A stretch of 64,000 bases of DNA from Parcubacteria group bacterium (GCA_041661275.1 JBAZUU010000005.1:72-64071), one strand, 5' to 3'. Shown: positions 6,365 to 46,530, counted from the stretch's first letter. Program-made: numbers and translations. The notes: generated from the letters alone by a model not told the origin.

Positions 6365-6429
6365 TCCCCCACCACTTTTTCACTTTTTTCTTTCGCACCA
6401 AAGGTGCGAGTGAAAAAGTGGTGGGGGAT
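6365..6429. repeat. Palindromic element (ATCCCCCACCACTTTTTCAC...GTGAAAAAGTGGTGGGGGAT)
   Basis: 20-bp perfect outer arms plus inner tcgcacc/ggtgcga pair. Lies between the stop of 6489-6959 and the hsp20 start. Confidence 0.6.
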
Positions 6430-6488
6430 GAATTAAGGCTAATTGCATTATAGTCCGGAGTGAACTTTTTGGCAAGGTTTCAGCATCA

Positions 6489-6959: not shown

Positions 6960-7083
6960 AAATTTCGCTCGGATACATTTTTATTTTTTGCGCGGATTTC
7001 TTCGAACAGTTTATATTTCACTTTAGGACGAGAAATCTATGCAAAAAATAAAAAGTATCCTCGCTCAATAATTAATGTAATTA

Positions 7084-13373: not shown

Positions 13374-14557
13374 AAATAGGGATTTTTACCAATAATTATC
13401 TTCCCAATCCTTATGGAGTTTCGACTTCCATCGAAACTTTTCGCCGTGATTTTGAGCGCCTGGGTCATCAGGTTTTTATTTTCGCCCCTCGTTGGCCAGG
13501 ATATATTGATGAAAATCCAAATGTTTTTCGTTATCCTTCAATTGATATTGAATTTAAATTCCGTTTTCCTCTGCCTATCCCATATTCCTGGAAAATGAGA
13601 AGAATATTGAAAAATTTAAATCTCGACATTATTCATTCCCAGCATCCAAATCTTCTTGGATCGGCGGCAATCAGATGGGCGAAAAAGAAAAAAATCCCAC
13701 TAGTTTTCACCTGGCATACGCTTTATGACAAATATGTGAATTTTGTGCCGTTTGTTCCGCCCAAAATTGCGGCCGGATTTATAATTCGGCGTGCGGTCAA
13801 ATTTGCTAACCAGGCTGACGCAGTGATTGTTCCGACAGATTCTATTATTCCAATTCTCCAAAGATGGGGCGTGAAAAATAAAAATATTGTTCCGATAGCG
13901 ACTGGAGTAATTGAAGAAAATTTCAAAAACGCCGACAAAAATTTAGTCAGGAATAAATATGGAATTAAAGATGATGAAACACTTCTTCTTCTGGTCTCTC
14001 GCCTTACGGCGGAAAAAAATATTTTATTTGTGATTAATGCGGTCAAGAATATTTTAAAAAACAATAAAGAATCCTCTCCTGAAGGGAGGGGAGGATATGG
14101 AATTAAGTTATTAATAGTTGGCGGAGGATATCTTTCCCAGGAAATAATAAAATTAGCTGAGAAAGAAGGCATCGCGGAGAAAATAATCCTTACCGGAGAA
14201 ATAGAGAATAAAAATATTGCTAACTATTTCGCGGCCGGGAATATATTCGTTTACGGTTCAAAATCAGAAACTCAAGGGATGGTCATGACTGAGGCGATGT
14301 TTTCCGGTTTGCCTGTTGTAGCGGTGAATGCTACCGGAACCAGTAGCCTCATAAAAAACAATATTAATGGATTTTTGGTTTCGGAAAATAAAAAAGAATT
14401 TGCAGAAGCAGTAGAAAAATTAATTGCTGATAAAAATTTGCGTCAGAAATTCGGCGAAGCATCCAAAAAAATCGCCCGGGAAAATTTTACCAGTTGCATT
14501 TGCGCCAAAAAGATGCTAGAAGTGTATAACAAAGCGATATTGGAAAAGAGCGAATAA
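13370..14557 (+). CDS. GT4-family glycosyltransferase
   Basis: MKIGIFTNNYLPNPYGVS N-domain; C-domain EX7E region (SKSETQGMVMTEAMFSGLPVVA). Overlaps the upstream gene by 4 nt. Confidence 0.8.
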   Translation: MKIGIFTNNYLPNPYGVSTSIETFRRDFERLGHQVFIFAPRWPGYIDENPNVFRYPSIDIEFKFRFPLPIPYSWKMRRILKNLNLDIIHSQHPNLLGSAAIRWAKKKKIPLVFTWHTLYDKYVNFVPFVPPKIAAGFIIRRAVKFANQADAVIVPTDSIIPILQRWGVKNKNIVPIATGVIEENFKNADKNLVRNKYGIKDDETLLLLVSRLTAEKNILFVINAVKNILKNNKESSPEGRGGYGIKLLIVGGGYLSQEIIKLAEKEGIAEKIILTGEIENKNIANYFAAGNIFVYGSKSETQGMVMTEAMFSGLPVVAVNATGTSSLIKNNINGFLVSENKKEFAEAVEKLIADKNLRQKFGEASKKIARENFTSCICAKKMLEVYNKAILEKSE

Positions 14558-19642: not shown

Positions 19643-19735
19643 ACAGTTTCAATGGGCGCCCGAATGGACGCCTTGTTTTATTGCTATAATTTCTTATTGA
19701 TATTAAAATTGTTTTAGAAGTTGTTAATAGTTTTT

Positions 19736-19803
19736 CCCTCTCCTGTCAGCCATAAATTTTCAGAAAAATTTAGGCTGACATCCTCTCCCTTCGGGAGAGG
19801 AGA
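19736..19803. repeat. RPE-like palindromic element copy A (CCCTCTCCTGTCAGCC...GGCTGACATCCTCTCCC..GGGAGAGGAG)
   Basis: Two nested hairpins. 19 nt upstream of tRNA-Pro(GGG). Confidence 0.7.
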
Positions 19804-19822
19804 ATAAGGAAGGTAGTTTTCG

Positions 19823-19906: not shown

Positions 19907-20323
19907 ATGTCAAAAAATATCGAAATAATTTCAAGAGCGTTCATTGTAAAAGAGGGAGAGGTCTTGCTGTGTAAGGTTAAATCCAAAGATAATTATTTTT
20001 TCCCTGGTGGGCATGTGGAATACGGAGAAAAAGTTGAGGATGCTTTGAAAAGAGAGTTGAAAGAAGAAATTGGCAAAGAATTGGAAAATATAAATTTTAT
20101 CGGAATTTGCGAAAATACTTTTCAGTTTATGGGAGAACATCAGGAAATCAATCTGGTTTTTGAAGCGGAAATTAATGATGATAAATTAGAAGTTTTAGAA
20201 GACCATATGGAATTTGGTTGGTTTTCTTTTAATAGAATTGAATCAATGAATGTTTTGCCAGAAAAATTAAAAAAGGAATTTTTGAAGTGGATAAAAAATA
20301 AGAAGATTTTTTATATAGTTTAA
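19907..20323 (+). CDS. NUDIX hydrolase
   Basis: Nudix box GGHVEYGEKVEDALKRELKEEIG. Confidence 0.8.
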   Translation: MSKNIEIISRAFIVKEGEVLLCKVKSKDNYFFPGGHVEYGEKVEDALKRELKEEIGKELENINFIGICENTFQFMGEHQEINLVFEAEINDDKLEVLEDHMEFGWFSFNRIESMNVLPEKLKKEFLKWIKNKKIFYIV

Positions 20324-20428
20324 CCCTCTCCTGTCAGCCATAAATTTTCAGAAAAATTTAGGCTGACATCCTCTCCCGCTCCGCCAGCCGGCGGACGGGC
20401 GAGGAGGATTTGAAAGAACTACTCATAG
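20324..20428. repeat. RPE-like palindromic element copy B with extended GC hairpin and GGAGGATTTGAAAG tail
   Basis: First 54 nt identical to copy A. Immediately upstream of tRNA-Pro(CGG). Confidence 0.7.
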
Positions 20429-21614: not shown

Positions 21615-21639
21615 TGTTGAAATTATATCATAAGCCCGT

Positions 21640-21730
21640 CCCTCTCCTGTCAGCCAGAATTTTAAGAAAAATTCAGGCTGACATCCTCTCCCAAGGGGAG
21701 AGGAGGATTTGAAAGTTACTATTTATAGGG
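21640..21730. repeat. RPE-like palindromic element copy C
   Basis: CCCTCTCCTGTCAGCCagaattttaagaaaaattcaGGCTGACATCCTCTCCCaaggGGAGAGGAGGATTTGAAAG. Confidence 0.7.
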
Positions 21731-27707: not shown

Positions 27708-27820
27708 ATCCCAGCACCAATTCCGACAAAGATTAGTGAAGTATAGAGATTAGTGCTCGGATTCGCCTGCGGCTTGACATCGAAATAAAAATAAATTAGT
27801 TTTGCGAATTGGTGCGGGAT
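27708..27820 (+). promoter_or_regulatory. Pilus-locus leader element copy 2
   Basis: ATCCCAGCACCAATTCC...ATTCGCCTGCGGCTTG...GAATTGGTGCGGGAT. 47 nt upstream of the pilC ATG 27867. Confidence 0.55.
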
Positions 27821-31996: not shown

Positions 31997-32056
31997 TAGT
32001 TTGATATAAGAACCTTAAGTGGCTTAGGTTACTTAGGATTAAATGAAAAAACAAAA

Positions 32057-32860
32057 ATGATTATTATATTGTTTGCAATTCTCGGACTCATTATTGGCAG
32101 TTTTTTGAATGTTCTGGTTTTCAGGACGAAAATTGAAGATTCACTTTTAGGGCGGTCATATTGTCCAAAATGCAAAAAGAAAATTGACTGGTATGACAAT
32201 ATTCCGGTTTTGAGTTTCATTATTCTTGGCGCCCAATGTCGCCAGTGCCGCCAGAAAATTTCCTGGCAGTATCCGATCGTAGAAATAATAACGGCCATTG
32301 TTTTCGCACTGGTTGCTTCTCGTTTTTTTTCCGTTTTTGATCCGGCCACCTGGACGATTACTTTCTATTACTTGGTAACATTTTCCCTGCTCATCGCCAT
32401 TTTGGTCTACGATTATCTCTATATGGAAATTCCCGGCATAATTTTGTGGCCGGCCATCGGTTTTGTCGTCGCCTTCGGCCTCATTTTTGACTGGACGCAA
32501 AAAGATACTTTTTTTGACATTTTGGAACTAAACATTTATTCCGGAGCGCTGGCGGCTTTTTTAGCATTTCTTTTTTTCTTTCTACTGGTTACGCTTTCCA
32601 AAGAGAGATGGATGGGGATGGGAGATGCCTATCTCGTTATTCTTCTCGGGCTTTTTGCCGGCTGGCCAAAGATTTTCCTGGGACTATTTCTGGCTTTTTT
32701 TCTGGGATCGATTTATGGTATCACTCTTATCGCTATGAAAAAGAAAAATATGAAAAGCCAGGTGCCCTTTGCCCCATTTTTGATTATCGGGACAGCCATT
32801 GCCGTTTTTGCCTATAGCCCGATCACGATCTGGTATTTTAATTTATTCAGCGCTTACTAA
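32057..32860 (+). CDS. pilD: Prepilin peptidase PilD (A24 family)
   Basis: CPKC...CRQC zinc-binding N-terminus, polytopic, catalytic-Asp region GMGDAYL. Confidence 0.85.
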   Translation: MIIILFAILGLIIGSFLNVLVFRTKIEDSLLGRSYCPKCKKKIDWYDNIPVLSFIILGAQCRQCRQKISWQYPIVEIITAIVFALVASRFFSVFDPATWTITFYYLVTFSLLIAILVYDYLYMEIPGIILWPAIGFVVAFGLIFDWTQKDTFFDILELNIYSGALAAFLAFLFFFLLVTLSKERWMGMGDAYLVILLGLFAGWPKIFLGLFLAFFLGSIYGITLIAMKKKNMKSQVPFAPFLIIGTAIAVFAYSPITIWYFNLFSAY

Positions 32861-32862
32861 AA

Positions 32863-33411
32863 ATGAGAAAGAAATTTTTTAGAAGAAATGCTTCCGGAGT
32901 GACGCTGGTCGAACTGGTTATTACCATGAGCATCATGGGAATTTTGGCGGTCATAGCCGTAGTTTCCATGAGTGAAACGAGAACAGCGTCAAAAGTGGAG
33001 GCGGCGCAAAAAGAAGTGGCGTCAGAGATAACTCTGGCCAAAGCCTATGCCCTTCAGGGAAAAACCCAAAGCGGAACAACGCCCTGTGGATATGGGGTAT
33101 ATTTTACAGCGACTGACAAATATCGAATTTATTACAATTATCAGAAAAGCGGAAAAACTTGTGACGAAACCAACACCGATTCCGATTATTGCCATTATAG
33201 AAATGGTTCTTCGGGAAAATTAGATGAAAAAGCGCTGTCCAACGGAATAACAGCGACTTCCGGCACAGATATATATTTCACCGTTCCCAATGCCCGGGCT
33301 CATAACGCAGGGGGTGAATTTAGCGGATCGGTGGATATCGGCCTGACTGTCGGAAGCATAAATAAAAACGTGTCCGTCAGCGGTTCAGGACTGGTTACGA
33401 TAGGAGAGTAA
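32863..33411 (+). CDS. Minor pilin / pseudopilin
   Basis: G|VTLVELVITMSIMGILAV prepilin N-terminus. Confidence 0.65.
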   Translation: MRKKFFRRNASGVTLVELVITMSIMGILAVIAVVSMSETRTASKVEAAQKEVASEITLAKAYALQGKTQSGTTPCGYGVYFTATDKYRIYYNYQKSGKTCDETNTDSDYCHYRNGSSGKLDEKALSNGITATSGTDIYFTVPNARAHNAGGEFSGSVDIGLTVGSINKNVSVSGSGLVTIGE

Positions 33412-33417
33412 AAACCA

Positions 33418-33984
33418 ATGAAAAAAATAATCAAAAACAAAAAATACCATGGGTTTTATCTGGTGGAAGCAATCATCGCCTTGTTTTTGATCACGGTCGG
33501 ACTTCTGGTGACTGTCGATCTGCTTTCCAGCACGATGAAAAATACCTTTGAAGATCGCGACAATATTACGGCTGTCCTTTTGGCGCAGGAAGGCGTGGAA
33601 CTGGTGAGAAACCTGCGGGATAATAATTTTGCCTTAGGGTTAGAAGCTTTTGAAGCACCCAGATTTCCGTCGACAACTAATCTATGCAGTATAGACAAAA
33701 ATAGCCCCAGGCTTTTTTGTGGCGCTGAAAAGAATTTTAATCTGAATTTAAGTAACAAGTTTTATGTTACCGGCTCGGGTAGCAAATTTAAGAGAAGAGT
33801 AGCTATCCAATATAGCGGCGACGGTACTGCCAGCGATCCGACCAACGATACTGCTGTTACCGTTACAGTAATTTGGAAAGGGGACATGTCGTCTGATTTT
33901 CCTGCTGACGGCACGCTGGCTACCAAATGTACGGCGGCCAAAGGTTGCGCTTATGTCGAAGTTCACCTAACCAGATGGAATTAG
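33418..33984 (+). CDS. Minor pilin (PilV-like)
   Basis: G|FYLVEAIIALFLITVGLL. Confidence 0.65.
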   Translation: MKKIIKNKKYHGFYLVEAIIALFLITVGLLVTVDLLSSTMKNTFEDRDNITAVLLAQEGVELVRNLRDNNFALGLEAFEAPRFPSTTNLCSIDKNSPRLFCGAEKNFNLNLSNKFYVTGSGSKFKRRVAIQYSGDGTASDPTNDTAVTVTVIWKGDMSSDFPADGTLATKCTAAKGCAYVEVHLTRWN

Positions 33985-34040
33985 TACGCAAAAGCGCGCA
34001 TGCGAATGTTTCTTAAGTAAATTAAGTTTCTCAGGACTCT

Positions 34041-34616
34041 ATGGAAAAAATTTTTGAAAATAAAAAACGTTACAAAGGGTTTTCGCTGGTGGAAATGATT
34101 TTGGTCGTGGCGATTTCCGCTATCATTGCTTTGGCTGTCGGACAAATATTTTTGACCGGGATGAAAACTTCCGAAAGAAACAAGGAAATGCAAAAAAACC
34201 TGGAGGAAGGCCGGTCGGCAATGGAAATGATGGCCAAAGATATCAGGATGAGTAAACTGACTAAGGGCGACTCCACTAATATTTTTATGTATAACAATTC
34301 ACAAGGCAAATGTATCAGCTATCAGTTTGATAACACCAAGAAAAAACTTGGGGTGGATCGAATTTATCCCGATGCAGACGTAACTGACCCCAATAAGCTT
34401 ACTTGTAAAACTACTGCCACTTCTTATTCTTACAGTGATTTAACTTCAGTAAATATTACCGGCAATTTTTTTATACCATTTGAAACAAACAGAACAACCC
34501 CCCCTTATTCAATCGGTCGGGCGACTATCCGGATGACGATGGGAGACGGGACGGACATGGAAGAGACTCTGCAGACATCGATTTCATTCAGAGATTATGA
34601 GGATATTTTGCAATAA
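34041..34616 (+). CDS. Minor pilin (PilW-like)
   Basis: G|FSLVEMILVVAISAIIALAV. Confidence 0.65.
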   Translation: MEKIFENKKRYKGFSLVEMILVVAISAIIALAVGQIFLTGMKTSERNKEMQKNLEEGRSAMEMMAKDIRMSKLTKGDSTNIFMYNNSQGKCISYQFDNTKKKLGVDRIYPDADVTDPNKLTCKTTATSYSYSDLTSVNITGNFFIPFETNRTTPPYSIGRATIRMTMGDGTDMEETLQTSISFRDYEDILQ

Positions 34617-34629
34617 AAAATAATGAGTA

Positions 34630-34742
34630 ATCCCGCACCAATTCCAATATGGCGCAGATATGGCCTAAGGAGTAGTGTGCGAATTCGCCTAACAGCTAAG
34701 TTTTAAATAAAAAATTAATATAACTGCGAATTGGTGCGGGAC
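34630..34742 (+). promoter_or_regulatory. Pilus-locus leader element copy 3
   Basis: ATCCCGCACCAATTCC...GAATTCGCCTAACAGC...GAATTGGTGCGGGAC. The track ORF start (TTG 34731) lies inside it. Confidence 0.55.
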
Positions 34743-34784
34743 ACTAAATTTTGTTTCCACTCGCCAAGCTCGCGGACAAAATTT

Positions 34785-35444
34785 GTGAAACACAAAGCAT
34801 CTATTCTGGCAGTAACGCTCATAACTTTGAGTATTATCCTTGTTACCGCGTTAGCCGTATCTTTGGCGGCGATAAAACAGAGGAACGCTTCTTTGGGATC
34901 GGGAAAATCCAATCTGGCTTTCCAAAACGCCGATACGGGCGTGGAAGAGGCGATGAATGAGATTACCGGAGGCACCAGCGCCACAGTTGGTGATGTATGC
35001 GGAAATTTACCTGGTACATATACGGGATATACTGTAAAATTTTTTGATAAAGATAATATTGAATTGAGTTGTTCAGGCGATGCTGGAAAATCAAAAAATG
35101 AAATAACTTCCATTAAATCAGTAGGTGTGGGAGCCAATCAAGAATCGAGAGCGATCGAAGCGGCAGTGGCGGCAGTGAAAAGCAGTAAAATTTGCGCCAC
35201 TTGGAATGGAAATGGTCTTCCCGATAAATCATTTGCTGATTATTTACCGGTTCCGATGAATTGGCAAATAGATGATTGTAAAAAGTGGGCCAAGCAAGTT
35301 TTTGATAATGCAAAAAATTCATACGCCGTAGGCTGTATTACGGATGAATCTGCCGGTAGCAACGGTGTTGTATTTGGTTCTTTTTGCGATACGACAAGTT
35401 GTGATGCAGATGCTCCGAGCGGAACAAAAAATTGCGGCTGGTAA
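34785..35444 (+). CDS. PilX-like minor pilin/adhesin
   Basis: GTG start. Hydrophobic N-terminus ASILAVTLITLSIILVTALAVSLAAI followed by a Cys-rich variable domain. Confidence 0.5.
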   Translation: MKHKASILAVTLITLSIILVTALAVSLAAIKQRNASLGSGKSNLAFQNADTGVEEAMNEITGGTSATVGDVCGNLPGTYTGYTVKFFDKDNIELSCSGDAGKSKNEITSIKSVGVGANQESRAIEAAVAAVKSSKICATWNGNGLPDKSFADYLPVPMNWQIDDCKKWAKQVFDNAKNSYAVGCITDESAGSNGVVFGSFCDTTSCDADAPSGTKNCGW

Positions 35445-35509
35445 TGGATAAATTTCCGCGATCTTTGCAAACAGGCCTGGTTTGGCCTGTTTTTTGTATT
35501 AATATATGA

Positions 35510-37753
<2,244 letters not shown>

Positions 37754-37772
37754 GTTTTTTGAGGTTTCCTTG

Positions 37773-37842
37773 GTTTCTTAGGTTACTTAAGTTGCTTACG
37801 ACTCGCCAAAATTTTTGCTTCGCAAAAACTTAGGCGAGAGAA
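37773..37842. repeat. CTTAGG-motif element + UUCG-loop hairpin upstream of gatC
   Basis: gtttcttaggttacttaagttgcttacgac then imperfect hairpin actcgccaaaatttttgc-ttcg-gcaaaaacttaggcgag. Confidence 0.55.
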
Positions 37843-37847
37843 GGATT

Positions 37848-38129
37848 ATGATCTCGAAAGATGAAGTAAAACATATCGCGGAACTGGCGAGGATTGGACT
37901 GGACAAAAAAGAGATCGAAAAGTTTTCGACTGATTTGTCGTCTATTTTGGACTGGATAGAGCAGTTGAAAGAAGTGGATATTGAGAATGTTGAGGCAATA
38001 GGGCATATTACGGGGATGGAAAATATCACGCGGAAGGATAAAACTCATGAATTTGATAATACTAGCGGAATCAAGGAATTGTTTCCAGAGGAAAAGGATG
38101 GATATGACAAGGTGAAGAGCGTTTTGTAG
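37848..38129 (+). CDS. gatC: Glu/Asp-tRNA amidotransferase subunit GatC
   Basis: MISKDEVKHIAELARIGL...LDWIEQLKEVD are typical GatC. ATG 37848. Confidence 0.8.
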   Translation: MISKDEVKHIAELARIGLDKKEIEKFSTDLSSILDWIEQLKEVDIENVEAIGHITGMENITRKDKTHEFDNTSGIKELFPEEKDGYDKVKSVL

Positions 38130-38130
38130 G

Positions 38131-38191
38131 ATTCTTAGGACTCTTAGGTTACTTACGACCCGCCCAAATTTTGCAGACAAAACTTGGGCGG
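38131..38191. repeat. CTTAGG-motif element + hairpin upstream of gatA
   Basis: attcttaggactcttaggttacttacgacc then hairpin cccgcccaaattttg-cagac-aaaacttgggcggg. Confidence 0.55.
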
Positions 38192-38199
38192 GAGAAAAA

Positions 38200-39675
38200 A
38201 TGATTAGAGAGCTACACGAAAAATTAATAAACGGCAAAATTACTTCTGTTGAATTGACACAGCAGTATTTTGACGCGATTGAAAAAAAAGACAAAGATAT
38301 ATTTGCATACCTGACACTTACAAAAGACCTGGCCATGGAACAGGCCAAAAAAGTGGATGAAAAAATTGCGCGGGGTGAGAAAATAGAACTACTCGAGGGT
38401 ATTCCAGGCGCGATAAAGGATGTTATTTGCACTGAAGGTGTACGCACTACTGCCGGATCGAAAATACTGGACAACTATATCGCTCCGTATGACGCAACGG
38501 CGGTAAAAAATCTGAGAAGTTTAGGCGCGGTCATTTTGGGCAAAACCAATTGTGATGAGTTTGCCATGGGATCGAGCACAGAAAACAGCGCCTATGGCCC
38601 GACAAAAAATCCACACGACCTGACTCGAGTGCCAGGCGGAACTTCCGGAGGATCAGCGGCGGCTATTGCGGCTGATATGGCAGTGTGGACGCTGGGAACA
38701 GATACTGGCGGTTCGATCAGGCAACCATCGTCACTTTGCGGAACAGTTGGGCTAAAACCAACTTACGGTCGGGTGTCACGCTATGGCCTCATCGCGGCCG
38801 CATCAAGTTTTGATTGTATTGGTCCTATCGCAAAAACAGTTGAAGACGCGGCCATTATCCTTTCGGCTATTTCCGGGCAGGATAAAAATGACGCCACTTC
38901 CGCGCATTCCAGTGACAAAAAATATGAAGACTATCTGACAGGAGTTGTGAGGGGAATGAAAATCGGAGTGGTGAAAGAATATCTGAAAGAGTTGAAAGAG
39001 GACGTTAGAAAAGTTATGGAAGAGGTGATAGAAAAATATAAAAAATTGGGAGCGGAAATTGTTGAAATTGAATTGCCGTATAATAAATATGCCTTGCCGG
39101 CTTACTACATAATCCAGCCTTCAGAAGTCAGCTCGAATTTGGCGAGATTTGACGGAGTGAAATACGGATTGAGAGTAAACGATGCAAAGGATTCTGTTGG
39201 AGATCGGGGAGATAAGGGGGATTGGGGAAATATGCCGAAAACTCTTCTGGAAACATATTTGGATACCAGGAAATATGGGTTAGGCGCTGAAGCGAAAAGA
39301 AGAATAATGCTGGGGACTTACGCGCTGTCATCCGGATATTATGAAGCGTATTATGTCCGGGCGCAAAAAGTCCGCGCGCTTATCAGGAAAGACTTTGAAA
39401 GAATATTTAATGAAGTAGATCTTATCCTGACTCCGACGACGACTGGCCCGGCGTTTAAGATTGGAGAAAAAATAGACGATCCGTTAGTCATGTATTTGGA
39501 AGATATTTTTACGGTTCCTGCCAACATCACCGGCGTACCGGCTATTTCCGTTCCAGCAGGCGTGGTAGAATTAGAAGGCAAGAAATTGCCTATCGGATTC
39601 CAACTTATGGGGAAATGGTTTGATGAAGAAAATTTGTTGCGCGCGGCGCACGCGTGGGAGAACGTATCCGTCTGA
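38200..39675 (+). CDS. gatA: Glutamyl-tRNA(Gln) amidotransferase subunit A
   Basis: Amidase signature GGSSGGSAAAIAA and Ser-cisSer-Lys region. In-frame purine-rich insert around 39190-39240. Confidence 0.9.
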   Translation: MIRELHEKLINGKITSVELTQQYFDAIEKKDKDIFAYLTLTKDLAMEQAKKVDEKIARGEKIELLEGIPGAIKDVICTEGVRTTAGSKILDNYIAPYDATAVKNLRSLGAVILGKTNCDEFAMGSSTENSAYGPTKNPHDLTRVPGGTSGGSAAAIAADMAVWTLGTDTGGSIRQPSSLCGTVGLKPTYGRVSRYGLIAAASSFDCIGPIAKTVEDAAIILSAISGQDKNDATSAHSSDKKYEDYLTGVVRGMKIGVVKEYLKELKEDVRKVMEEVIEKYKKLGAEIVEIELPYNKYALPAYYIIQPSEVSSNLARFDGVKYGLRVNDAKDSVGDRGDKGDWGNMPKTLLETYLDTRKYGLGAEAKRRIMLGTYALSSGYYEAYYVRAQKVRALIRKDFERIFNEVDLILTPTTTGPAFKIGEKIDDPLVMYLEDIFTVPANITGVPAISVPAGVVELEGKKLPIGFQLMGKWFDEENLLRAAHAWENVSV

Positions 39676-39846
39676 GAAATCAAAAATTTTCTCGAAATTG
39701 AACTCGAATCATGAATTTTCTAGCCAAAAATTTCCCTCAATCAAAGGCTGCCACAGGAAATTTTTGGAGAAAATTCAGATTCTCAAACAGTAATTTCTCA
39801 AAATTTTTTGATTTCTCAGTCGTTTATTTAATATAAAATAAAAAAT

Positions 39847-40407
39847 ATGGACACTTCCGGCAATATTATGGCGGACGTAACTAATTCGCTTTTGTATTTC
39901 TATAACTCGACGACTTTTTCGGTTATCAAGTTTATCATTGGAATATATGTGGCGGTGATTTTTGTCGACATCATTCTTTTTCTTTTTCAACGGGGATTGG
40001 GCGGGGATGTCCGCGATACGCGGCTTGGTATGAACGTTCCTAAGGAGTTTCTAAGAAAAAAGCCGCGGCAAAAATTGGCGATGCGATGGAAAAAATTAAG
40101 AGAAGAAATAGAAACAGGAGAAAATAATAAAATAAAAGTAGCCATAATTTCTGCTGACGACATAATAGCGAACCTTATTCGACGAATGTATGCCGGAGCG
40201 CCGTTTGCCAAAAAAGAGATTCCGATCGATGAGATGCTAAACGCCATTCCGGACGGACAGATAGAGAATATGGCGGATATAAAAAACTCTCATTTGGAAA
40301 GAAACAGGATTATCCATGATGAGAGTTTCCATCCAACCAAAGAAGAAGCGTACGAAATCTTAGCGCCTTTTGAAGAATTTTTACGCTATCATGGGGTGCT
40401 GGATTGA
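39847..40407 (+). CDS. Hypothetical membrane-anchored protein
   Basis: ORF with N-terminal TM. Confidence 0.5.
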   Translation: MDTSGNIMADVTNSLLYFYNSTTFSVIKFIIGIYVAVIFVDIILFLFQRGLGGDVRDTRLGMNVPKEFLRKKPRQKLAMRWKKLREEIETGENNKIKVAIISADDIIANLIRRMYAGAPFAKKEIPIDEMLNAIPDGQIENMADIKNSHLERNRIIHDESFHPTKEEAYEILAPFEEFLRYHGVLD

Positions 40408-40540
40408 CAAAGCAGGATTTTACGGATAAAATAGAGAGCAGTCTTTGTATTTATATATATAGCGGGGTGGAGTCCCGCCAAGGCGGGAGTAACTCGCAGT
40501 ACAATGACTATGAGTAAATTTAAGTTTAGCTTGAAAACAT

Positions 40541-40614
40541 AGCGGGGTGGAGCAGTCTGGTAGCTCGCGTGGCTCATAACCACGAGGTCGCCGGTTCAAA
40601 TCCGGCCCCCGCAA
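40541..40614 (+). tRNA. Initiator tRNA-fMet (CAT)
   Basis: AGCGGGGTGGAGCAGTCTGGTAGCTCG...CTCATAA...GGTTCAAATCCGGCCCCCGCAA. Unpaired 1:72 (A:A) is initiator-like. Confidence 0.75.
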
Positions 40615-40678
40615 CATTGAAGTTGATATATTTTCGAACTAGCCGTATAATTAATGCATAACATATACGGTAGGTTTT

Positions 40679-41356
40679 ATGTCAAAATCAAAGGAACAAC
40701 TTTTAGCTCGCGATTTAAGAAAAAAGGGACTAAGTATAAACGAAATCTCGAGAAGGCTTAAGGTTTCGAAAAGCTCTGTTAGTCGCTGGTGTTCCGATAT
40801 TCAGTTGTCCAAAAAGCAGATTAAAATCCTGCATGACCAAATGGTCAGGGGAAGTTACAAGGGTAGAATGATCGGAGTAGAAATTCAAAAGCAGAGGAAG
40901 AAGAAAAAAATTGAAGAATGTTTATTAAGGGCAAAAAAAGATATTCCAATTCTGACGAAAAGAGAGTTATTCATTGCGGGGTTATCGCTTTATTGGGGAG
41001 AAGGAGCGAAAAATTGTTCCAATGTTCGGTTATATAATTCCGATCCATTTGTGATAAAGCTCATTATGAAATGGTTCAGAGAGTCATTGAATATTAAGGA
41101 TGATGAATTTCAGATGTATGTAAATGTTAACGGAATCCACAAGAATAGATCGGATGACATAATTAAATATTGGTCAAAAATAACCAAAGTTCCTACAAAT
41201 CAGTTTAGAAAACCTACCCTTATTAAGGTGAAAAATAAGAAGATTTATGAGAATTTTAACGAACACTACGGAACGCTCTCAATCAGAATCGCTAAGAGTA
41301 AGTACTTACTTTATCAGATTTTAGGGTGGATAGAGGCATTGGGTGAGGCAGGGTAG
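40679..41356 (+). CDS. HTH-domain protein with LAGLIDADG-like motif (possible homing-endonuclease relative)
   Basis: N-terminal LSINEISRRLKVSKSSVSRWC HTH; FIAGLSLYWGEGAK resembles LAGLIDADG. Embedded among tRNA genes. Confidence 0.45.
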   Translation: MSKSKEQLLARDLRKKGLSINEISRRLKVSKSSVSRWCSDIQLSKKQIKILHDQMVRGSYKGRMIGVEIQKQRKKKKIEECLLRAKKDIPILTKRELFIAGLSLYWGEGAKNCSNVRLYNSDPFVIKLIMKWFRESLNIKDDEFQMYVNVNGIHKNRSDDIIKYWSKITKVPTNQFRKPTLIKVKNKKIYENFNEHYGTLSIRIAKSKYLLYQILGWIEALGEAG

Positions 41357-41420
41357 CTCAGTTGGTTAGAGCACGGCACTCATAAGGCCGGGGTCAAGAG
41401 TTCGAGTCTCTTCCCTGCTA
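41347..41420 (+). tRNA. tRNA-Met or tRNA-Ile2 (CAT)
   Basis: GGCAGGGTAGCTCAGTTGGTTAGAGC, loop CTCATAA, GAGTTCGAGTCTC. Confidence 0.75.
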
Positions 41421-41438
41421 CAAAATTAAATAATAATT

Positions 41439-41512
41439 GGGGGCGTAGCTCAGTTGGTTAGAGCGATTGCCTGTCACGCAATAGGTCGAGGGTTCGAGTC
41501 CCTTCGCTCCCG
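41439..41512 (+). tRNA. tRNA-Asp (GTC)
   Basis: GGGGGCGTAGCTCAGTTGGTTAGAGC, loop CTGTCAC, GGGTTCGAGTCCC. Confidence 0.85.
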
Positions 41513-41526
41513 CAAAATCATTGAAA

Positions 41527-41552
41527 TAGCCCGTGTTTAGGCTATTTTTTGA
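41527..41552 (+). terminator. Rho-independent terminator after the tRNA pair
   Basis: atagcc-cgtgttt-aggctat hairpin + TTTTTT. Confidence 0.5.
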
Positions 41553-41564
41553 TGCCAAAAAGGC

Positions 41565-41593
41565 TTGCAAATATCCGAAAAAAAGACTATAAT
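41565..41593 (+). promoter_or_regulatory. Sigma70-type promoter TTGCAA-17-TATAAT
   Basis: 15 nt upstream of leader element copy 4. Confidence 0.4.
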
Positions 41594-41608
41594 TAACAGG
41601 TAATATCG

Positions 41609-41719
41609 ATCCCTACACCAATTTCAGGAGGGGTTATCCGAGGGAAAAACAGGAAAACAAATTCGCCTGACGGCTTTAATTAGCTGAAATAAAAGACTTT
41701 ACAAAAATTGGTGAGGGAT
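41609..41719 (+). promoter_or_regulatory. Leader element copy 4
   Basis: ATCCCTACACCAATTTC...AAATTCGCCTGACGGCTTTA...AAATTGGTGAGGGAT. 12 nt upstream of ATG 41731. Confidence 0.55.
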
Positions 41720-41730
41720 AAACATAAAAT

Positions 41731-42102
41731 ATGACACTCAAAGCCTATATTTGGATCGGGAGGCTCTTGTCTTTGTTATCCCTTGCGTCATTAGTTTTAA
41801 TTATCAATTATATTGGACCTGATGATTATGGCTGGCAAGGAAAGGCAATTTTTTATTTAATTTTAGGGCTGTTTTTGACCGGATTTTTTAGCCTCGTCAT
41901 GTTGTTTATCCGACGAAAAACCTTAGGCGAGGATTCTGCTGGAAAAAACGCCAGGCTAAGTATGCGGCAAGGAATGCTTCTGGCACTTCTTACTATTGCG
42001 CTTCTCATCCTTCAAAGTTTTCGTATGCTTGTATGGTGGGACGGACTTCTAGTAGTTGCTGCTGTTTTTTTAGTAGAGTTGTATTTTCTAAGTAGAAATT
42101 AA
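41731..42102 (+). CDS. Hypothetical small polytopic membrane protein
   Basis: Four hydrophobic segments. Downstream of leader element copy 4. Confidence 0.5.
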   Translation: MTLKAYIWIGRLLSLLSLASLVLIINYIGPDDYGWQGKAIFYLILGLFLTGFFSLVMLFIRRKTLGEDSAGKNARLSMRQGMLLALLTIALLILQSFRMLVWWDGLLVVAAVFLVELYFLSRN

Positions 42103-42153
42103 TTTGTTTAGTTTCTTATGATACTTAAGTAACTTACGAAAAGGAAATAATTT

Positions 42154-44190
42154 ATGCCAAAAGACAAAGAACCGAAAAAAGATAATGGCGATTATACCGC
42201 CAAATCCATCCAGGTTTTGGAAGGGTTGGAACCGGTCAGAAAGCGTCCGGGTATGTATATCGGTGGCACATCCACTGAAGGGCTCCATCATTTGATCTGG
42301 GAAGTGGTCAATAATGCTATCGATGAAGCAATGGCCGGATATTGCAAGAATGTTAAAGTGAAGCTGCTTCCGGACAACGTAATCGAGATCGAAGATGATG
42401 GGCGGGGAATTCCAGTAGAAAAACATCCTCAGACCAAAAAATCAACTTTGGAAACGGTCTTGACCGTCCTTCACGCCGGAGGAAAATTTGGTGGAAATGG
42501 GTATAAGATTTCCGGAGGACTTCATGGTGTCGGAGTGTCAGTGGTTAACGCTCTTTCCGAATGGCTTCACGCGGAAGTGAAAAGAGACGGAAAAATTTAT
42601 GCCATGGATTTTGAAAGGGGAAAACCTAAGTCAAAAGATCCAAAAGTTGTCGGTAAAGCCAAGGAAACCGGATTTAAGGTTTCTTTCAAAGCTGATTCAA
42701 AGATTTTTCCGGAGATAAACTATTCCTGGGAAAAAATTCTGGGCTATCTCCGCCAGCAAGCCTATCTGACCAAGGGAGTGAATATAAAAATTTACGATGA
42801 ACGCGAAGAAGATAAAAAACGCGCCTATGGGTTTCTTTTTGACGGCGGAGTGATCTCATATGTCAAATTTCTCAATCGCGGCAAGGAAGTGAAGAACGAA
42901 ATGCCATTTTATGTGGAGAAAAAATTAGAAGATAGCGAAGTAGAAATCGCCTTGCAATATACCGATGGATATAAGGAGCACGTATTTTCTTTTGCCAACA
43001 ATATTTTCACGCCGGAAGGCGGAATGCACGAAGCCGGATTTCGGGCGGCATTAACGCGAGTACTCAACGCTTATGCCAAGAAAAACAATTTTCTGAAAGA
43101 AAAAGATGGCAGTTTTACGTCCGAAGATCTGGCAGAAGGGCTTACTGCGGTGATTTCGGTGAAACTGAAAAACCCACAATTTGAAGGGCAGACCAAATCA
43201 AAACTGGGAAATGGAGAAATGCGCGGAATAGTTTCGAGCGTTACTGCCGAAGCGTTGGCTGAATATCTGGAACATCATCCGCATAACGCCAAGGCAATCC
43301 TTAATAAATGTCTTCTGACAGCCAAAGCGCGCCTCGCTGCCCGCGCGGCCAAAGATGCGGTCATCAGAAAAGGGGCTCTAGAAGGAATGACACTTCCGGG
43401 GAAGCTGGCTGACTGCACATCGCGCGACGCGTCAAAATCCGAACTATATATCGTTGAGGGCGATAGCGCCGGTGGCTCGGCAAAACAAGGGCGCGACAGA
43501 ATGTTTCAGGCTATCTTGCCACTTCGTGGAAAATTGGTAAACGTAGAAAAAACAACGCTCGACAAAGTGGTAAAATCAGATACCTTGAAGCCGATCATTA
43601 TCGCTCTTGGAACTGGCATCAGCGATAGTTTCGACATTGGGCGTCTTCGTTATCATAAAATAATTATCATGGCCGATGCCGATGTGGACGGTTCTCATAT
43701 CAGAACACTGCTTCTGACATTTTTCTATCGCTATTTTGAAAAGCTTATCCGTGAAGGACATATCTATATCGCGCAACCTCCGCTTTACCGTTTGCAGAAA
43801 GGAAAAGAGATTCGCTATGTCTATACTGATGAACAGAAGAATAGAGAAGTGGCGGAGATGCAAAGTAAGGGCAACGTTGGAGATAAGGGAAAGAAGGGAA
43901 ATAGGGGAGATGAAGAAATTATTATGGAAACCGATACCGAATCAGAAAGTGAAGTGGGAGAAAAGGTATTTGGAATAAATATCCAACGTTACAAAGGTCT
44001 TGGAGAAATGAATCCGACTCAACTTTGGGAAACGACAATGGATCCAGGAAGCCGACTGATGATGCAAGTGACCATCAATGATGCCGAAGCGGCAGACAAG
44101 ATGTTCGATGTTCTTATGGGGACAGAAGTAGAACCGCGTCGACGATTCATCCAAGCGAGGGCGAGGAGTGTGAAGAATCTTGACGTTTAG
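42154..44190 (+). CDS. gyrB: DNA gyrase subunit B
   Basis: GHKL ATPase motifs (EVVNNAIDEA, GLHGVGVSVVNALS), Toprim (YIVEGDSAGGSAKQGRD), PLRGK. In-frame GDKGKKGNRGDEE insert near the C-terminus. Confidence 0.9.
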   Translation: MPKDKEPKKDNGDYTAKSIQVLEGLEPVRKRPGMYIGGTSTEGLHHLIWEVVNNAIDEAMAGYCKNVKVKLLPDNVIEIEDDGRGIPVEKHPQTKKSTLETVLTVLHAGGKFGGNGYKISGGLHGVGVSVVNALSEWLHAEVKRDGKIYAMDFERGKPKSKDPKVVGKAKETGFKVSFKADSKIFPEINYSWEKILGYLRQQAYLTKGVNIKIYDEREEDKKRAYGFLFDGGVISYVKFLNRGKEVKNEMPFYVEKKLEDSEVEIALQYTDGYKEHVFSFANNIFTPEGGMHEAGFRAALTRVLNAYAKKNNFLKEKDGSFTSEDLAEGLTAVISVKLKNPQFEGQTKSKLGNGEMRGIVSSVTAEALAEYLEHHPHNAKAILNKCLLTAKARLAARAAKDAVIRKGALEGMTLPGKLADCTSRDASKSELYIVEGDSAGGSAKQGRDRMFQAILPLRGKLVNVEKTTLDKVVKSDTLKPIIIALGTGISDSFDIGRLRYHKIIIMADADVDGSHIRTLLLTFFYRYFEKLIREGHIYIAQPPLYRLQKGKEIRYVYTDEQKNREVAEMQSKGNVGDKGKKGNRGDEEIIMETDTESESEVGEKVFGINIQRYKGLGEMNPTQLWETTMDPGSRLMMQVTINDAEAADKMFDVLMGTEVEPRRRFIQARARSVKNLDV

Positions 44191-44207
44191 GGTCGCGCGA
44201 GCGAATG

Positions 44208-44236
44208 AAGCTTTCCTTTGCGGAAAGCTTTTTTTG
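44208..44236 (+). terminator. Rho-independent terminator of gyrB
   Basis: aagctttcc-tttgc-ggaaagctt + TTTTTTT. Confidence 0.55.
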
Positions 44237-44283
44237 TTGGAAGGAGTTTGCCGAGCTTCTTTCGTTTCTTGGGTTGCTTTCGA

Positions 44284-44327
44284 GAACTAAAAAAGTTTTG
44301 ACTAATAGTCAAAACTTTTTTAGTTCA
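44284..44327. repeat. Perfect 21-bp-arm palindrome between convergent genes
   Basis: gaactaaaaaagttttgacta-a-tagtcaaaacttttttagttc. Confidence 0.5.
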
Positions 44328-44353
44328 AGAGTTTTCCGGGTTTAATTTTTTCT

Positions 44354-44851
44354 TCAAAACTTGCTTCCGGATTTTTTTCGAAATTCAATTCTTTTTCGAT
44401 ATAACTCTTCGGTCAGACCTCCTTCTTGTTCGTGTTTCTTTTTCAGAGATTCAACCTGACGATTAAGAAGATAAGTTGCCTGATGACAAAGGGTGAGAAG
44501 AAAGTTAGCGGCGTCTTCAGGGTCTTGAGGGAGCGGGAGTGTTTTCAGAAACTCTGGGTTTCTTAGGTTGCTTAAGTTTCTTACGAGCGTTGCGGACTTC
44601 GCTCGCAACGCAGTTACGCGCGGATCATTTTTGTTCCATTGTTTCAAATTTCTTTGACGCAAAAAATCTTCCAGGTCTCCGATCAATTCTTCAATCGAAC
44701 TTTTGGCGACTCCAGTGAGACCAGTACAAAGTTTCAAGGATGTTGTCAAATTATCTGAACCTTCCACGATATTTTGTTTGCCGCTTCTAGCCGCTCCGTT
44801 CATCTGTTCTTTCAACTTCCAGCTGCGAATTTCCCGGTCGCAAAATTCCAC
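44354..44851 (-). CDS. Hypothetical protein with weak four-helix-bundle (TIGR02436-like) signature and an embedded CTTAGG-hairpin element
   Basis: ARSGKQNIVEGS...AKSSIEEL pattern. Codons for RAKSATLVRNLSNLRNPEF are supplied by the repeat element 44557-44613. Confidence 0.45.
   Translation of the reverse strand: MEFCDREIRSWKLKEQMNGAARSGKQNIVEGSDNLTTSLKLCTGLTGVAKSSIEELIGDLEDFLRQRNLKQWNKNDPRVTALRAKSATLVRNLSNLRNPEFLKTLPLPQDPEDAANFLLTLCHQATYLLNRQVESLKKKHEQEGGLTEELYRKRIEFRKKSGSKF
44557..44613. repeat. CTTAGG-motif element + hairpin (inside ORF 44354-44851)
   Basis: ggtttcttaggttgcttaagtttcttacgagc + gcgttgcggacttcgctcgcaacgc. Confidence 0.55.
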
Positions 44852-44951
44852 TGTGCGATCATAAATGATAACCGAAAACTAGTATGTAAAAAGTTTTTTG
44901 TATGGTTGCATGAGTTTATTGTAGCACAATTTTTTCAACGTTTCGGCTCCG

Positions 44952-45022
44952 GAGTTTCTTGCGTCACTTAAGTTTCTTACGAGAACTCGAGAATTGACTT
45001 AGTCAATTCTCGAGTTCATTTT
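44952..45022. repeat. CTTAGG-motif element + terminator-like hairpin
   Basis: gagtttcttgcgtcacttaagtttcttacgag + aactcgagaattgac-tta-gtcaattctcgagtt + T8. Confidence 0.55.
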
Positions 45023-45237
45023 TTTCTTATTTTATCAAATACGATATTTTGGCTTGAATGAAGGGCATATTTGATAGAAAATAATAATATTTGATATCAA
45101 ATAATTTTTTAAACTATAAATTTTCAATAAAAATTTGCCGATTTTTGAGCTGTGGATAAGTCATAAATTTGTGTTGTTGGCAAGGGTGAAAAATGATATA
45201 ATTTAAGCAGGTTTATCCAGTCAAAAAAACACAAAAA

Positions 45238-46395
45238 ATGGCTCTCAATAAAGCAAAAATCAAAAACGAAATAGACGTGAAATTCATCCCACTTTCCGAG
45301 GCCGCAAAAAGGTCCGGATATACTCCTGAACACCTGAACCTTTCCGCCCGGAAAGGAAAATTGCAGGCGCAAAAGATCGGGCGCAACTGGTACACAACCG
45401 AAGAATGGTTGTGTACCTTTTTAGAGTTGGCGCTTGGGAGGAGCGGAGAGGAGAAGGTTGGCGCGAGCGAGGAAATTGGAGAAGGCGTTGAGACTGACGA
45501 GACTCTGTCGAACCTTGAGTCACTTAGGTCGCTTAGGATTCTTACGAGGTCAGAATTTCCATTCGAAAATTCCGATGAGAAGAAAAGCAGCAACGACGAG
45601 AAGGAAGTTTTTAGAGACGCTTTGCTGGAAGTGGCGGGAGAAAAAAAATCAGAAAAAATCTTTTCCAAAAACTTGGTGCAAATGCTGGCTGGTGTTTCAT
45701 TGGTTGTAATTTTTATCCCGATAATTTTCTTTTCAGTTTATTCGGTGAAATATTACGCGGCGCAAAAAAATAACCAAGCGGAAAAAATCGCCCTCGTCAA
45801 TGAAACGCCGTCAGAAGTCATCGTGAACGAAAATGGAAATAATTTAACATCCGAAAATCCGGAAGAAAAAGTTTTGGGAATTGTCGCGGGCGAAACTACT
45901 GCTGCTGACACAGAAGCTCAAAAAAAATCAGGAGTGGTTCTGGCATCGGAAAATTTCAAAGCGCAAAATGTCAGTATGGGAGTGGGAATAGTTTTAGCTT
46001 CCGCCGAAGAAAATGCGCCGCTTGAAATAACGGATGTAAAATCGGAATCGTTCATCACCGGCAAAAAAAATAATGCTAACTCGCAAGAAGAAGTTAAGCT
46101 GGTGGTTTCCTGGAAGACGAACAAGCTCGCTATGTCGGAACTGGATTTTTCCAAAAACAACGGACAGGATCCAAAAGTGCTGAAAGAAAATTCTTTCGGA
46201 TTTAACCATGCCGTAGTTCTGACCGGGATCGATCCGCGGACGTCGTATGTCTATCAGGTGAAAGGCAAAGACCATTGGGGCGCGGAAGTCAGTTCGGATT
46301 TCTATGGGCTGTTCACCGCGTCGAAACCGGTTTCTGTTTTTGATTTGATTTCTAATCAGATAAATGAAATTTTCGGTTGGGCGATCAAGAAGTGA
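45238..46395 (+). CDS. Membrane-anchored protein with N-terminal HTH_17/excisionase-like motif and C-terminal FN3-like domain
   Basis: IPLSEAAKRSGYTPEHLNLSARKGKLQAQKIGRNWYTTEEW, TM segment LVQMLAGVSLVVIFIPIIFFSVYSV, C-terminal TSYVYQVKGKDHWG. Contains an in-frame CTTAGG repeat at 45514-45547. Confidence 0.6.
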   Translation: MALNKAKIKNEIDVKFIPLSEAAKRSGYTPEHLNLSARKGKLQAQKIGRNWYTTEEWLCTFLELALGRSGEEKVGASEEIGEGVETDETLSNLESLRSLRILTRSEFPFENSDEKKSSNDEKEVFRDALLEVAGEKKSEKIFSKNLVQMLAGVSLVVIFIPIIFFSVYSVKYYAAQKNNQAEKIALVNETPSEVIVNENGNNLTSENPEEKVLGIVAGETTAADTEAQKKSGVVLASENFKAQNVSMGVGIVLASAEENAPLEITDVKSESFITGKKNNANSQEEVKLVVSWKTNKLAMSELDFSKNNGQDPKVLKENSFGFNHAVVLTGIDPRTSYVYQVKGKDHWGAEVSSDFYGLFTASKPVSVFDLISNQINEIFGWAIKK

Positions 46396-46425
46396 GTTTC
46401 TTGCGTCGCTTAGGAAGCTTACGAG
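46394..46425. repeat. CTTAGG-motif element
   Basis: gagtttcttgcgtcgcttaggaagcttacgag. Confidence 0.5.
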
Positions 46426-46440
46426 TCCGCCTAAAATGTT

Positions 46441-46510
46441 CCCTCTCCTGTCAGCCTAAATTTTTAAGAAAAAATTTGGCTGACATCCTCTCCCGGAGGG
46501 AGAGGAGGAA
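46441..46510. repeat. RPE-like palindromic element copy D
   Basis: CCCTCTCCTGTCAGCCtaaatttttaagaaaaaatttGGCTGACATCCTCTCCCggagGGAGAGGAGG. 20 nt before the giant gene. Confidence 0.7.
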
Positions 46511-46530
46511 AATGAAAATGACAAATTAAA

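Follow-up and report, generated by a model that had tools for sequence, protein, structure and literature searches.

Among known genetic elements, the intervening sequences (IVSs) of 23S rRNA with an S23p open reading frame (ORF) and the Rickettsia palindromic elements (RPEs) are closest to the element described here. A classical IVS is one long stem that RNase III excises from the precursor, so that the rRNA is fragmented. It lies in the hairpin loop of helix 9, 25 or 45 of 23S rRNA, and S23p (PF05635) ORFs are known from IVSs of Salmonella, Leptospira and Coxiella. To our knowledge, classical IVSs occur only in rRNA and have no phased CTTAAG array. RPEs were reportedly described by Ogata et al. 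in 2000, a study cited in the review PMC10969869. In this study, we analysed a stretch of 64,000 nt (42% GC; hereafter the window, within which copy positions are counted) from a metagenome-assembled genome of the Parcubacteria group, and characterized a repeat family composed of an array of phased CTTAGG- or CTTAAG-like hexamers, frequently followed by a GC hairpin. This module is found across the candidate phyla radiation (CPR) and is tied to a cassette, its conserved home, whose gene encodes a four-helix-bundle protein with suffix domain (four-helix-bundle-suffix gene). Its copies lie in rRNA, in spacers and in proteins, and have been gained and lost between relatives; in the window, the solo copies are clustered within 13 kb of the cassette. 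We consider, with a probability of roughly 55%, that the arrays are an IVS-type insertional module of the CPR that has dispersed solo copies and has the cassette protein as a putative partner.

The module resembles a 23S IVS in that it flanks a gene whose product is predicted to have the S23p / IVS-protein fold, and in that two copies without an ORF are located at the classical helix-9 and helix-25 sites (locus L032). It differs in having several short hairpins rather than one long stem; moreover, the ORF cassette lies here between protein-coding genes, and solo copies are found both in spacers of mRNAs and, in frame, within proteins. Like RPEs, the module is a short repeat of reduced genomes that occurs between genes, in frame at tolerated protein sites and in RNA genes, and has no transposase of its own. 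Going by their description only, RPEs differ in being 100-150 bp long and restricted to Rickettsia, and in having neither phased hexamers nor a linked conserved gene.

In the window, the single hexamer CTTAGG is at background level (21 found, 20.4 expected), whereas the phased triple CTTANG-N3-CTTANG-N3-CTTANG, with at most two mismatches, was found 21 times against 0.10 expected and was matched in none of 100 shuffles. The initial annotation of this DNA had predicted a motif frequency above expectation; by this window-level count, that is correct for the phased triple and not for the lone hexamer. A hidden Markov model (HMM) built from the copies gave 10 strong matches and one weak match. All 11 copies are on the plus strand and are confined to positions 32005-46426, and no array copy was found by the HMM scan in the remaining ~50 kb of the window. 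The copies align in register as N2-T-G/A-R-G, TTT-CTTAGG, TTN-CTTAAG and TTN-CTTACGA. A weak fourth unit thus lies 5' of three obvious units, so that the module is 4 x 9 = 36 nt long, not ~30 nt as first described. The profile scan and the alignment in register confirmed that the nine copies listed in the initial annotation all exist and belong to one family. That list had overlooked two copies, 34003-34038 and ~44250-44285 (with the hairpin 44284-44326). The copy upstream of gyrB (42106), which it called degenerate, is not especially so, and the copy at 44553 is real but sits inside a minus-strand gene (44375-44911), antisense and in frame. A GC hairpin had been assigned to every unit; it was found 3' of 6-7 of the 11 copies and is missing from those at 32005, 34003 and 42106. 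The HMM score tends to rise with proximity to the cassette, with copy 42106 as the exception. Avoidance or enrichment of CTTAAG as a restriction site was ruled out, since the hexamer occurs outside the arrays about as often as expected (7 observed, 8.3 expected).

A DNA-pattern scan (CTTRNGNNNCTTARGNNNCTTACGA) with one genome per species yielded 49 loci, a total close to our estimate of the chance expectation for 16 fixed bases and two R over the ~1.2e12 positions scanned. About half of these loci belong to Patescibacteria and share features beyond the search pattern. In them, the array takes the dyad form TCGTAAG-N3-CTTAAG-N3-CTTARG-N3-CTTACGA, with four hexamers of the type C(T)TA(A)G, and usually has a GC hairpin of variable sequence abutting it on one or both sides. 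Phased runs consist of three units (n=48) or four units (n=30), rarely of five or six, and runs of at least three units are absent from shuffled sequences. The order of units is fixed, with TCGTAAG first and CTTACGA last, and the same hexamer is kept across CPR phyla. It is symmetric at its invariant positions C1, T3, A4 and G6 and recurs with a strict period of 9 nt; the end units conserve only their inner halves, TAAG and CTTA. Both orientations of the array occur across lineages. Twelve pattern matches in viral contigs were coding repeats or chance matches, with neither hairpins nor the four-helix-bundle-suffix gene.

By tblastn, the four-helix-bundle-suffix gene was found at the array in 17 of the 49 pattern loci, as well as in the window and in a related locus, L053. 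In nearly all loci with the gene, a first array reaches the ATG, and its last unit, CTTATG, often contains the start codon; a second array is accompanied by one or two hairpins in mid-gene, and a third begins at the stop codon. As a control for bias, seven loci (L103-L108 and L110) were fetched by protein identity only. They also have arrays at the gene, and none in ~130 kb of flanks. The genes neighbouring the four-helix-bundle-suffix gene vary from genome to genome; therefore, the gene together with its arrays behaves as a cassette. Homologues of the window protein are up to 86% identical to it, which is a higher conservation than that of LigA. The window cassette is oriented opposite to that of L053 and to its own neighbours. 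In addition, a TAG at codon 11 (44879-44881, minus strand) replaces a conserved Trp (MQPYKKLFTY*FSV, compared with MQPYKKLFTYWFSV in homologues). The gene may be inactive in the one genome here that has numerous solo arrays.

The array inside the gene is kept by selection on the nucleotides themselves. We aligned the codons of 15 four-helix-bundle-suffix genes and compared seven scorable array-coded codons with 119 other conserved codons. The array-coded codons are nearly single-choice (CTC, GTA, AGA, TTA, AGT, TTA, AGA). Normalised codon entropy is 0.12 in this set and 0.79 in the other 119 codons, a difference reached by none of 20,000 permutations. In eight loci that had not been picked by the array pattern, the values are 0.11 and 0.75 (none of 50,000 permutations). 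It is this nearly fixed codon choice that indicates selection on nucleotides.

The conserved feature is the phased word itself, not a base-paired helix. Arrays of the window can fold as two 6-bp stems, and pairing between their halves amounts on the plus strand to 75 Watson-Crick and 24 G.U pairs of 120 (99/120), compared with 75 Watson-Crick pairs and one G.U pair of 120 on the other strand. Among 74 four-unit arrays, however, there was no covariation between the halves (e.g. 22 observed, 22.1 expected) or between the spacers (25 against 26 and 19 against 23.6 expected). Outside the clade of the window, G/C asymmetry shows no uniform direction with respect to the gene strand. Because column pairs match what composition alone predicts, and because of this mixed asymmetry, we rejected an RNA helix of the two array halves, although it is thermodynamically possible in the window. 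The flanking hairpins are present in most copies and are stable, yet their sequence differs and their register shifts. RNAalifold gave no consensus structure for the in-gene hairpin, because the register of the stem shifts between genomes.

Copies of the module were also found in rRNA. In Saccharibacteria locus L032, two near-identical elements of ~110 nt (hairpin, array, hairpin), without an ORF, are inserted in the 23S rRNA gene at model positions ~167 (helix 9 region) and 583 (helix 25), which are classical IVS sites. A survey of rRNA insertions in CPR found many short uncharacterised inserts at these 23S sites without describing the motif, reported that rRNA inserts of Saccharibacteria are nearly all 250 bp or shorter, and found 23S_rRNA_IVP ORFs in CPR rRNA insertions (PMC11270868). 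A protein search with a spurious ORF that spans the L032 insert retrieved no further rRNA examples. The window has no rRNA gene, and none of its 11 copies is in rRNA. Other features of the L032 rRNA genes (rRNA regions 1-3389 and 4439-7051) were noted: the 16S gene extends over 2.6 kb (model, 1478 positions), and three inserts interrupt the 23S gene within its first 600 model positions. The middle insert is 189 nt long and contains other simple repeats (ggatttaggatttagg). Pairing of the array with the 3' tail of 16S rRNA was considered and rejected; the L032 16S rRNA ends in the canonical CCUCCUUUCUA, and no convincing match was found.

The genes around the window copies are all on the plus strand and include type IV pilus genes, ligA, gatC, gatA and gyrB (Table 1). 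Solo copies occupy the spacers between stop and start codons, and those before gatC, gatA and gyrB fill them, as the initial annotation had stated. The upstream stop is inside unit 0 in two cases (TAG of gatC and TGA of ORF45238), and the downstream Shine-Dalgarno sequence is in the last array unit or just 3' of the hairpin. The hairpins had been placed 5-8 nt before the ribosome-binding site; instead, the gatC hairpin ends ~2 nt before the Shine-Dalgarno sequence, and the gatA hairpin overlaps it. A function of the array as a back-up stop in frame with the upstream gene was rejected, since it holds for gatC and ORF45238 and fails for ligA, ORF41731 and ORF31490. Three copies are translated, namely those in ligA, in ORF45238 and, antisense, in the minus-strand ORF 44375-44911 (LVRNLSNLRN).

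Table 1. Copies of the array module and the four-helix-bundle-suffix gene in the window
Feature	Position	Strand	Context and properties
Solo array TATAAG-CTTAAG-CTTAGG-CTTAGG	32005..32040	+	Spacer between pilin-like ORF (stop 31996) and prepilin peptidase gene (ATG 32057); no GC hairpin; array by itself folds at -11.2 kcal/mol, z -3.6
Degenerate solo array	34003..34038	+	HMM 22.9 bits; last unit CTCAGGA is the Shine-Dalgarno sequence for ATG 34041
Array 37312-37346 and hairpin 37344-37367	37312..37367	+	In frame in ligA; encodes loop of HhH domain
Array 37768-37803 and hairpin 37802-37838	37768..37838	+	Occupies ligA/gatC spacer; gatC ATG 37848
Array 38125-38160 and hairpin 38159-38192	38125..38192	+	gatC/gatA spacer; gatA ATG 38200; unit 0 TGTAGG includes gatC stop; hairpin overlaps gatA Shine-Dalgarno GGGAG; fold -30.5 kcal/mol, z -5.2
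Solo array without hairpin	42106..42141	+	Precedes gyrB (ATG 42154)
Degenerate array TTCTTTCG-TTTCTTGGG-TTGCTTTCGAG and 20-bp hairpin 44284-44326	44250..44326	+	Weak HMM match; hairpin z -5.2; 3' of gyrB terminator; flank at 3' end of four-helix-bundle-suffix gene
Four-helix-bundle protein with suffix domain (MQPYKKLFTY...)	44375..44911	-	TIGR04258 64.6 bits, cut-off 40
Array 44553-44588 and hairpin 44587-44611	44553..44611	+	Within minus-strand four-helix-bundle-suffix gene, antisense, in frame; top HMM match, 32.3 bits; closest to family consensus
Array 44949-44984 and 16-bp hairpin 44983-45017, then T-run	44949..45017	+	Flank at 5' end of four-helix-bundle-suffix gene; z -4.3; the one array hairpin with a terminator-like score
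Array in frame in ORF 45238-46395	45514..45549	+	Encodes LESLRSLRILT
Array, unit 0 AGTGAG containing ORF45238 stop	46391..46426	+	Followed by a different double-hairpin repeat (46440-46515)

The closest non-identical LigA homologues, with ~70% identity, are from Moranbacteria and Pacebacteria. We compared three syntenic loci, L050, L051 and L053, whose LigA is 71-72% identical to that of the window. L050 has an array before the prepilin peptidase gene (6464-6497), in the same place as window copy 32005. L053 has an array in the ligA/gatC spacer (8661-8692), as in window copy 37768, and a homologous array with hairpin 3' of gyrB (14127-14200), the counterpart of window 44250-44326. Its gatC/gatA spacer is 4 nt long and its spacer before gyrB has no array; the window copies at these two places are therefore gains relative to L053. 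The array of ORF45238 aligns to a gap of 11 aa, exactly 33 nt, in the 52%-identical L053 orthologue; the copy supplies codons there, as proposed earlier, and is an insertion relative to this relative. More distant relatives (L054-L090, LigA 34-69% identical) have no arrays. A look-up with the window's own gene product retrieved no sister strain. The initial annotation also regarded the ligA segment as an insert. The segment does supply codons; however, in the orthologue alignment it is matched by NLERVTQKRIKSLEEMTKIFPEIT, of equal length, and it adds no residues relative to the nearest orthologues. It is a hypervariable loop, one of at least four in CPR LigA, filled with different repeat-like peptides depending on the orthologue, and xLG repeats occur at it in several non-identical orthologues as well. 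LigA (35522-37753) has insert hot spots at aa ~105-140, 262-290, 468-480 and 595-615, and CPR orthologues have various inserts that look like translated repeats, each of them different, such as FQISNFKF, KSQKSKVK, PLVKGRG and RLRGNDN.

The protein encoded by the cassette is likely to have the S23p / 23S-rRNA-IVS-protein fold. In an AlphaFold model (pLDDT 94), hairpin and array 44553-44611 encode helix 4 (ALRAKSATLVRNLSNLRN) of the bundle, not a loose linker. The top six Foldseek matches are all 2gsc or 2rld, of the S23p family, with probability of 0.96-1.0 but E of ~0.1. As a single sequence, the N-terminal domain scores 17.6-27.3 bits with PF05635 (cut-off 33.8) and 18.2 with TIGR02436 (cut-off 24); precomputed PF05635 matches exist for many homologues.

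From these observations, the following scheme is proposed for the insertional module. The module would insert in the manner of an IVS and be tolerated at any surface loop of a host RNA or protein. In the lineage of the window, it may have been copied locally from the cassette by recombination or gene conversion, into operon spacers, always in sense orientation, and into the two protein reading frames that contain no stop. Once transcribed, the array would be held between its flanking hairpins as a platform that a protein recognises by sequence. The leading candidate for this partner is the cassette's own protein, which is probably pentameric (S23p-family crystal entries have chains A to E). 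Any effect on the expression of gatC, gatA or gyrB would be a by-product. A more specific form of the scheme takes the array as the cognate site of the four-helix-bundle-suffix protein, most likely as single-stranded RNA between two clamp hairpins. Bound at the 5' end, the middle and the 3' end of its own message, and at the rRNA and operon copies, the protein is predicted to control processing or translation. We put this form forward tentatively and think it rather unlikely as stated.

Several points weigh against the insertional scheme. Three solo copies are retained at syntenic sites despite a LigA identity of only ~70%, and all 13 solo copies in the clade are in sense orientation, several of them orthologous. 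This orientation, together with G.U pairing at 24 of the 45 positions of the window's arrays that lack a Watson-Crick pair on the plus strand (one on the other strand), could reflect a role of the RNA from which the host benefits. Target-site duplications were not seen. No copying enzyme was identified, and the window has no transposase, no reverse transcriptase of a diversity-generating retroelement (DGR) and no Y1 transposase. Insertion in rRNA is represented by L032 only, and the N-terminal domain is under the cut-offs of both PF05635 and TIGR02436 when a single sequence is scored. Binding of the array by the cassette protein is something that we purely infer.

The observations on orientation and spacing lead to the question of whether the arrays are inter-cistron elements that benefit the host, that is, signals for mRNA processing, stability or translational coupling between a stop codon and the next ribosome-binding site. 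The solo copies exactly fill stop-to-start spacers, the stop often falling within unit 0, and the last unit containing or just preceding the Shine-Dalgarno sequence or ATG; every copy in this clade is sense, G.U pairs appear on the sense strand only, a hairpin overlaps the gatA Shine-Dalgarno sequence, and three sites are common to relatives. Such a signal, however, would have to account for copies in frame in three proteins and within 23S rRNA, for close relatives without an array at the same spacers, for ~50 kb of similar plus-strand operons in the window that have none, and for seven other genomes in which the array is only at the four-helix-bundle-suffix gene. There is also no U-tract, no covariation and no Rfam match, and in other CPR lineages the G/C asymmetry does not follow the gene strand consistently. 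We thus hold this explanation to be rather unlikely. A dedicated mRNA leader does not fit, because the module is also inside coding regions and the 23S rRNA gene. The attenuator role suggested in the initial annotation is not supported. An intrinsic terminator or attenuator was rejected because the only T-run is at hairpin 44983-45017, the gatC and gatA hairpins have none, and no alternative structure was found. With Rfam 15, only tRNAs pass the gathering threshold, no family matches the arrays even at E up to 5, and the sub-threshold hits are chance matches of hairpins to miRNA models. An attenuator or processing role at gatC/gatA may exist as a side effect; it is rated lower, since the module is also present at sites where it could not act in this way.

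The symmetry of the hexamer at C1, T3, A4 and G6, the strict 9-bp phase and the run of 3-4 units would also suit a DNA operator array, in which the palindromic hexamers, or overlapping TAAG-N3-CTTA, are bound in MetJ/omega style by a dimeric protein that acts as a roadblock or repressor for the cassette and nearby genes. The end units retain inner halves only, both orientations occur across lineages, and in the window and L053 an array lies just 5' of the promoter of the cassette gene, all of which agree with an operator. On the other hand, most arrays are in coding regions, in rRNA or in stop-to-start gaps that leave no room for a promoter, it is not obvious what conserved flanking hairpins would do on double-stranded DNA, the arrays have no linked gene for a DNA-binding protein, and isolated CTTAAG is neither enriched nor avoided. 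An operator is thus quite improbable in our view. It might finally be argued that no discrete element exists and that the arrays are a 9-nt slippage microsatellite, a codon-driven Leu-X-X repeat, a promoter or a guide array of CRISPR or TIGR type, because a 9-nt period preserves the reading frame, other in-frame repeats of this period occur in the window, and TIGR arrays have 36-nt units and occur in CPR bacteria. The fixed order of units, from TCGTAAG to CTTACGA, and the same hexamer across CPR phyla are against this, as is the fact that the majority of copies are non-coding. Canonical sigma-70 promoters are located elsewhere: strong ones were found at 40623, at 41565, before 45238 and before ligA, and the arrays reach only a chance-level 9/12 when compared with -35 and -10 hexamers 16-18 bp apart. 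Nor are there variable 8-12-nt spacers, tandem 36-nt units or a Nop-domain gene. The absence of a discrete element is therefore very improbable, and the IVS-type insertional module remains our preferred explanation.

Other described systems share single aspects with this module. REP, BIME and REPIN sequences and miniature inverted-repeat transposable elements such as the Neisseria Correia element are likewise hairpin repeats in operon spacers that are co-transcribed and orientation-biased, and some of them are RNase III substrates. The conserved part of the module is the unpaired phased array, not the hairpin. A link to RAYT/Y1 transposases was rejected: tblastn with two Y1 proteins gave no match in the window, and elsewhere matches were no more frequent in array-bearing loci. 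The binding sites of TRAP (GAG/UAG repeats) and HutP are similar by functional analogy only, being few short words with fixed spacing, free spacers and no covariation. The module differs in its period of 9 nt instead of 5-7 nt, in the symmetry of its word and in its candidate protein, which is unrelated. TIGR-Tas arrays consist of tandem 36-nt units with two variable spacers of 8-12 nt and box C/D, and adjoin a gene with a Nop domain (PMC12045711). They were rejected as an explanation, since the units of the module are dispersed one by one, their hexamers are conserved and their spacers are 3 nt long, and no Nop domain was found among the 20 ORFs scanned. No account of the phased hexamer array, of its tie to TIGR04258, or of copies in mRNA spacers and proteins of CPR was found in the searchable literature; searches on the motif or on 'four helix bundle suffix' found nothing.

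Some further features were noted around the cassette gene and in the rest of the window. In L104 (2289-6377) and L105 (7396-10564), bAvd and a reverse transcriptase, as in a DGR, are directly 5' of the four-helix-bundle-suffix gene, which in these loci also adjoins giant Laminin_G_3 / Lcl_C proteins. A general DGR link was rejected, because this arrangement is limited to these two loci and no reverse transcriptase was found in the window or the other loci. Boxes of -10 type lie 6-7 nt before the ATG of ligA (35504-35524, TATAAT) and of the four-helix-bundle-suffix gene (44912-44935, minus strand, TGcTACAAT), which suggests that both mRNAs are leaderless. A link to oriC/DnaA was also rejected, as there is one perfect DnaA box at 45151 and no cluster, and GC skew is positive throughout the window.

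A second repeat family is present at 19716-19820, 20304-20408, 21639-21723 and 46421-46525. Its copies are composed of CCCTCTCC, a hairpin GTCAGCC-(AAATTTTCAGAAAAATTT)-GGCTGAC and a hairpin of CCTCTCCC, loop and GGGAGAGG; pairing with the GGGAGAGG arm could be contested by the upstream CCCTCTCC. Two of the copies run directly up to tRNA-Pro genes (19823 and 20429), and one precedes an ORF of 1502 aa at 46531. Another in-frame repeat of 9 nt (TGGAGATTGGGGAGAGAGGGGAAATTGGGGAAA-like) is in ligA (36309-36350), gatA (39198-39230), gyrB (43878-43910) and ORF45238 (45452-45484). It encodes peptides of the GEIGE / GDKGKKGNRGD type and, in LigA, lies at a hypervariable insertion site. Elements of ~110 nt with a closing stem of 13-14 bp (TCCCGCACCAATTC ... 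GAATTGGTGCGGGA) at 27711-27818, 34631-34741 and ~41609-41720 are each just 5' of an ORF start (27819, 34731 and 41731) and have no Rfam match; they could be an unrecognised 5' leader RNA. The spacer 3' of gatA is filled by an imperfect inverted repeat (39669-39822) with 31-nt arms that are 84% complementary and nested 12-nt arms. The first 14 nt of a tRNA-Met gene (TAGCGGGGTGGAG) are duplicated ~80 nt upstream (40455-40475 and 40541-40555), and a second tRNA-Met gene (41347) overlaps the end of an ORF with a helix-turn-helix domain (40679-41356). The duplication and the overlap could be a scar of an integrated element.

In conclusion, CPR bacteria are known for unusual insertions in rRNA and proteins, and the phased array provides a searchable motif for the short non-intron ones, which had no defined sequence identity. 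It joins three things that have so far been considered apart: short IVS-like rRNA inserts, the gene family of S23p / IVS proteins, and repeat-derived peptides in housekeeping proteins. With this motif, segments that are not native can be marked in gene models of CPR, and differences in length of LigA, GyrB and proteins like them can be explained. Conservation at the nucleotide level, in the gene and next to it and in several CPR phyla, shows that the array is a functional nucleic-acid signal, and candidate binding between protein and array offers a lead on the function of the protein family. If the cassette protein binds the array, a family without explanation since the 1990s would gain its first molecular function. 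In that case gatCA, gyrB, the pilus genes and ligA of this bacterium would carry orphan operator sites, in a genome where the four-helix-bundle-suffix gene itself is inverted and bears a stop codon.

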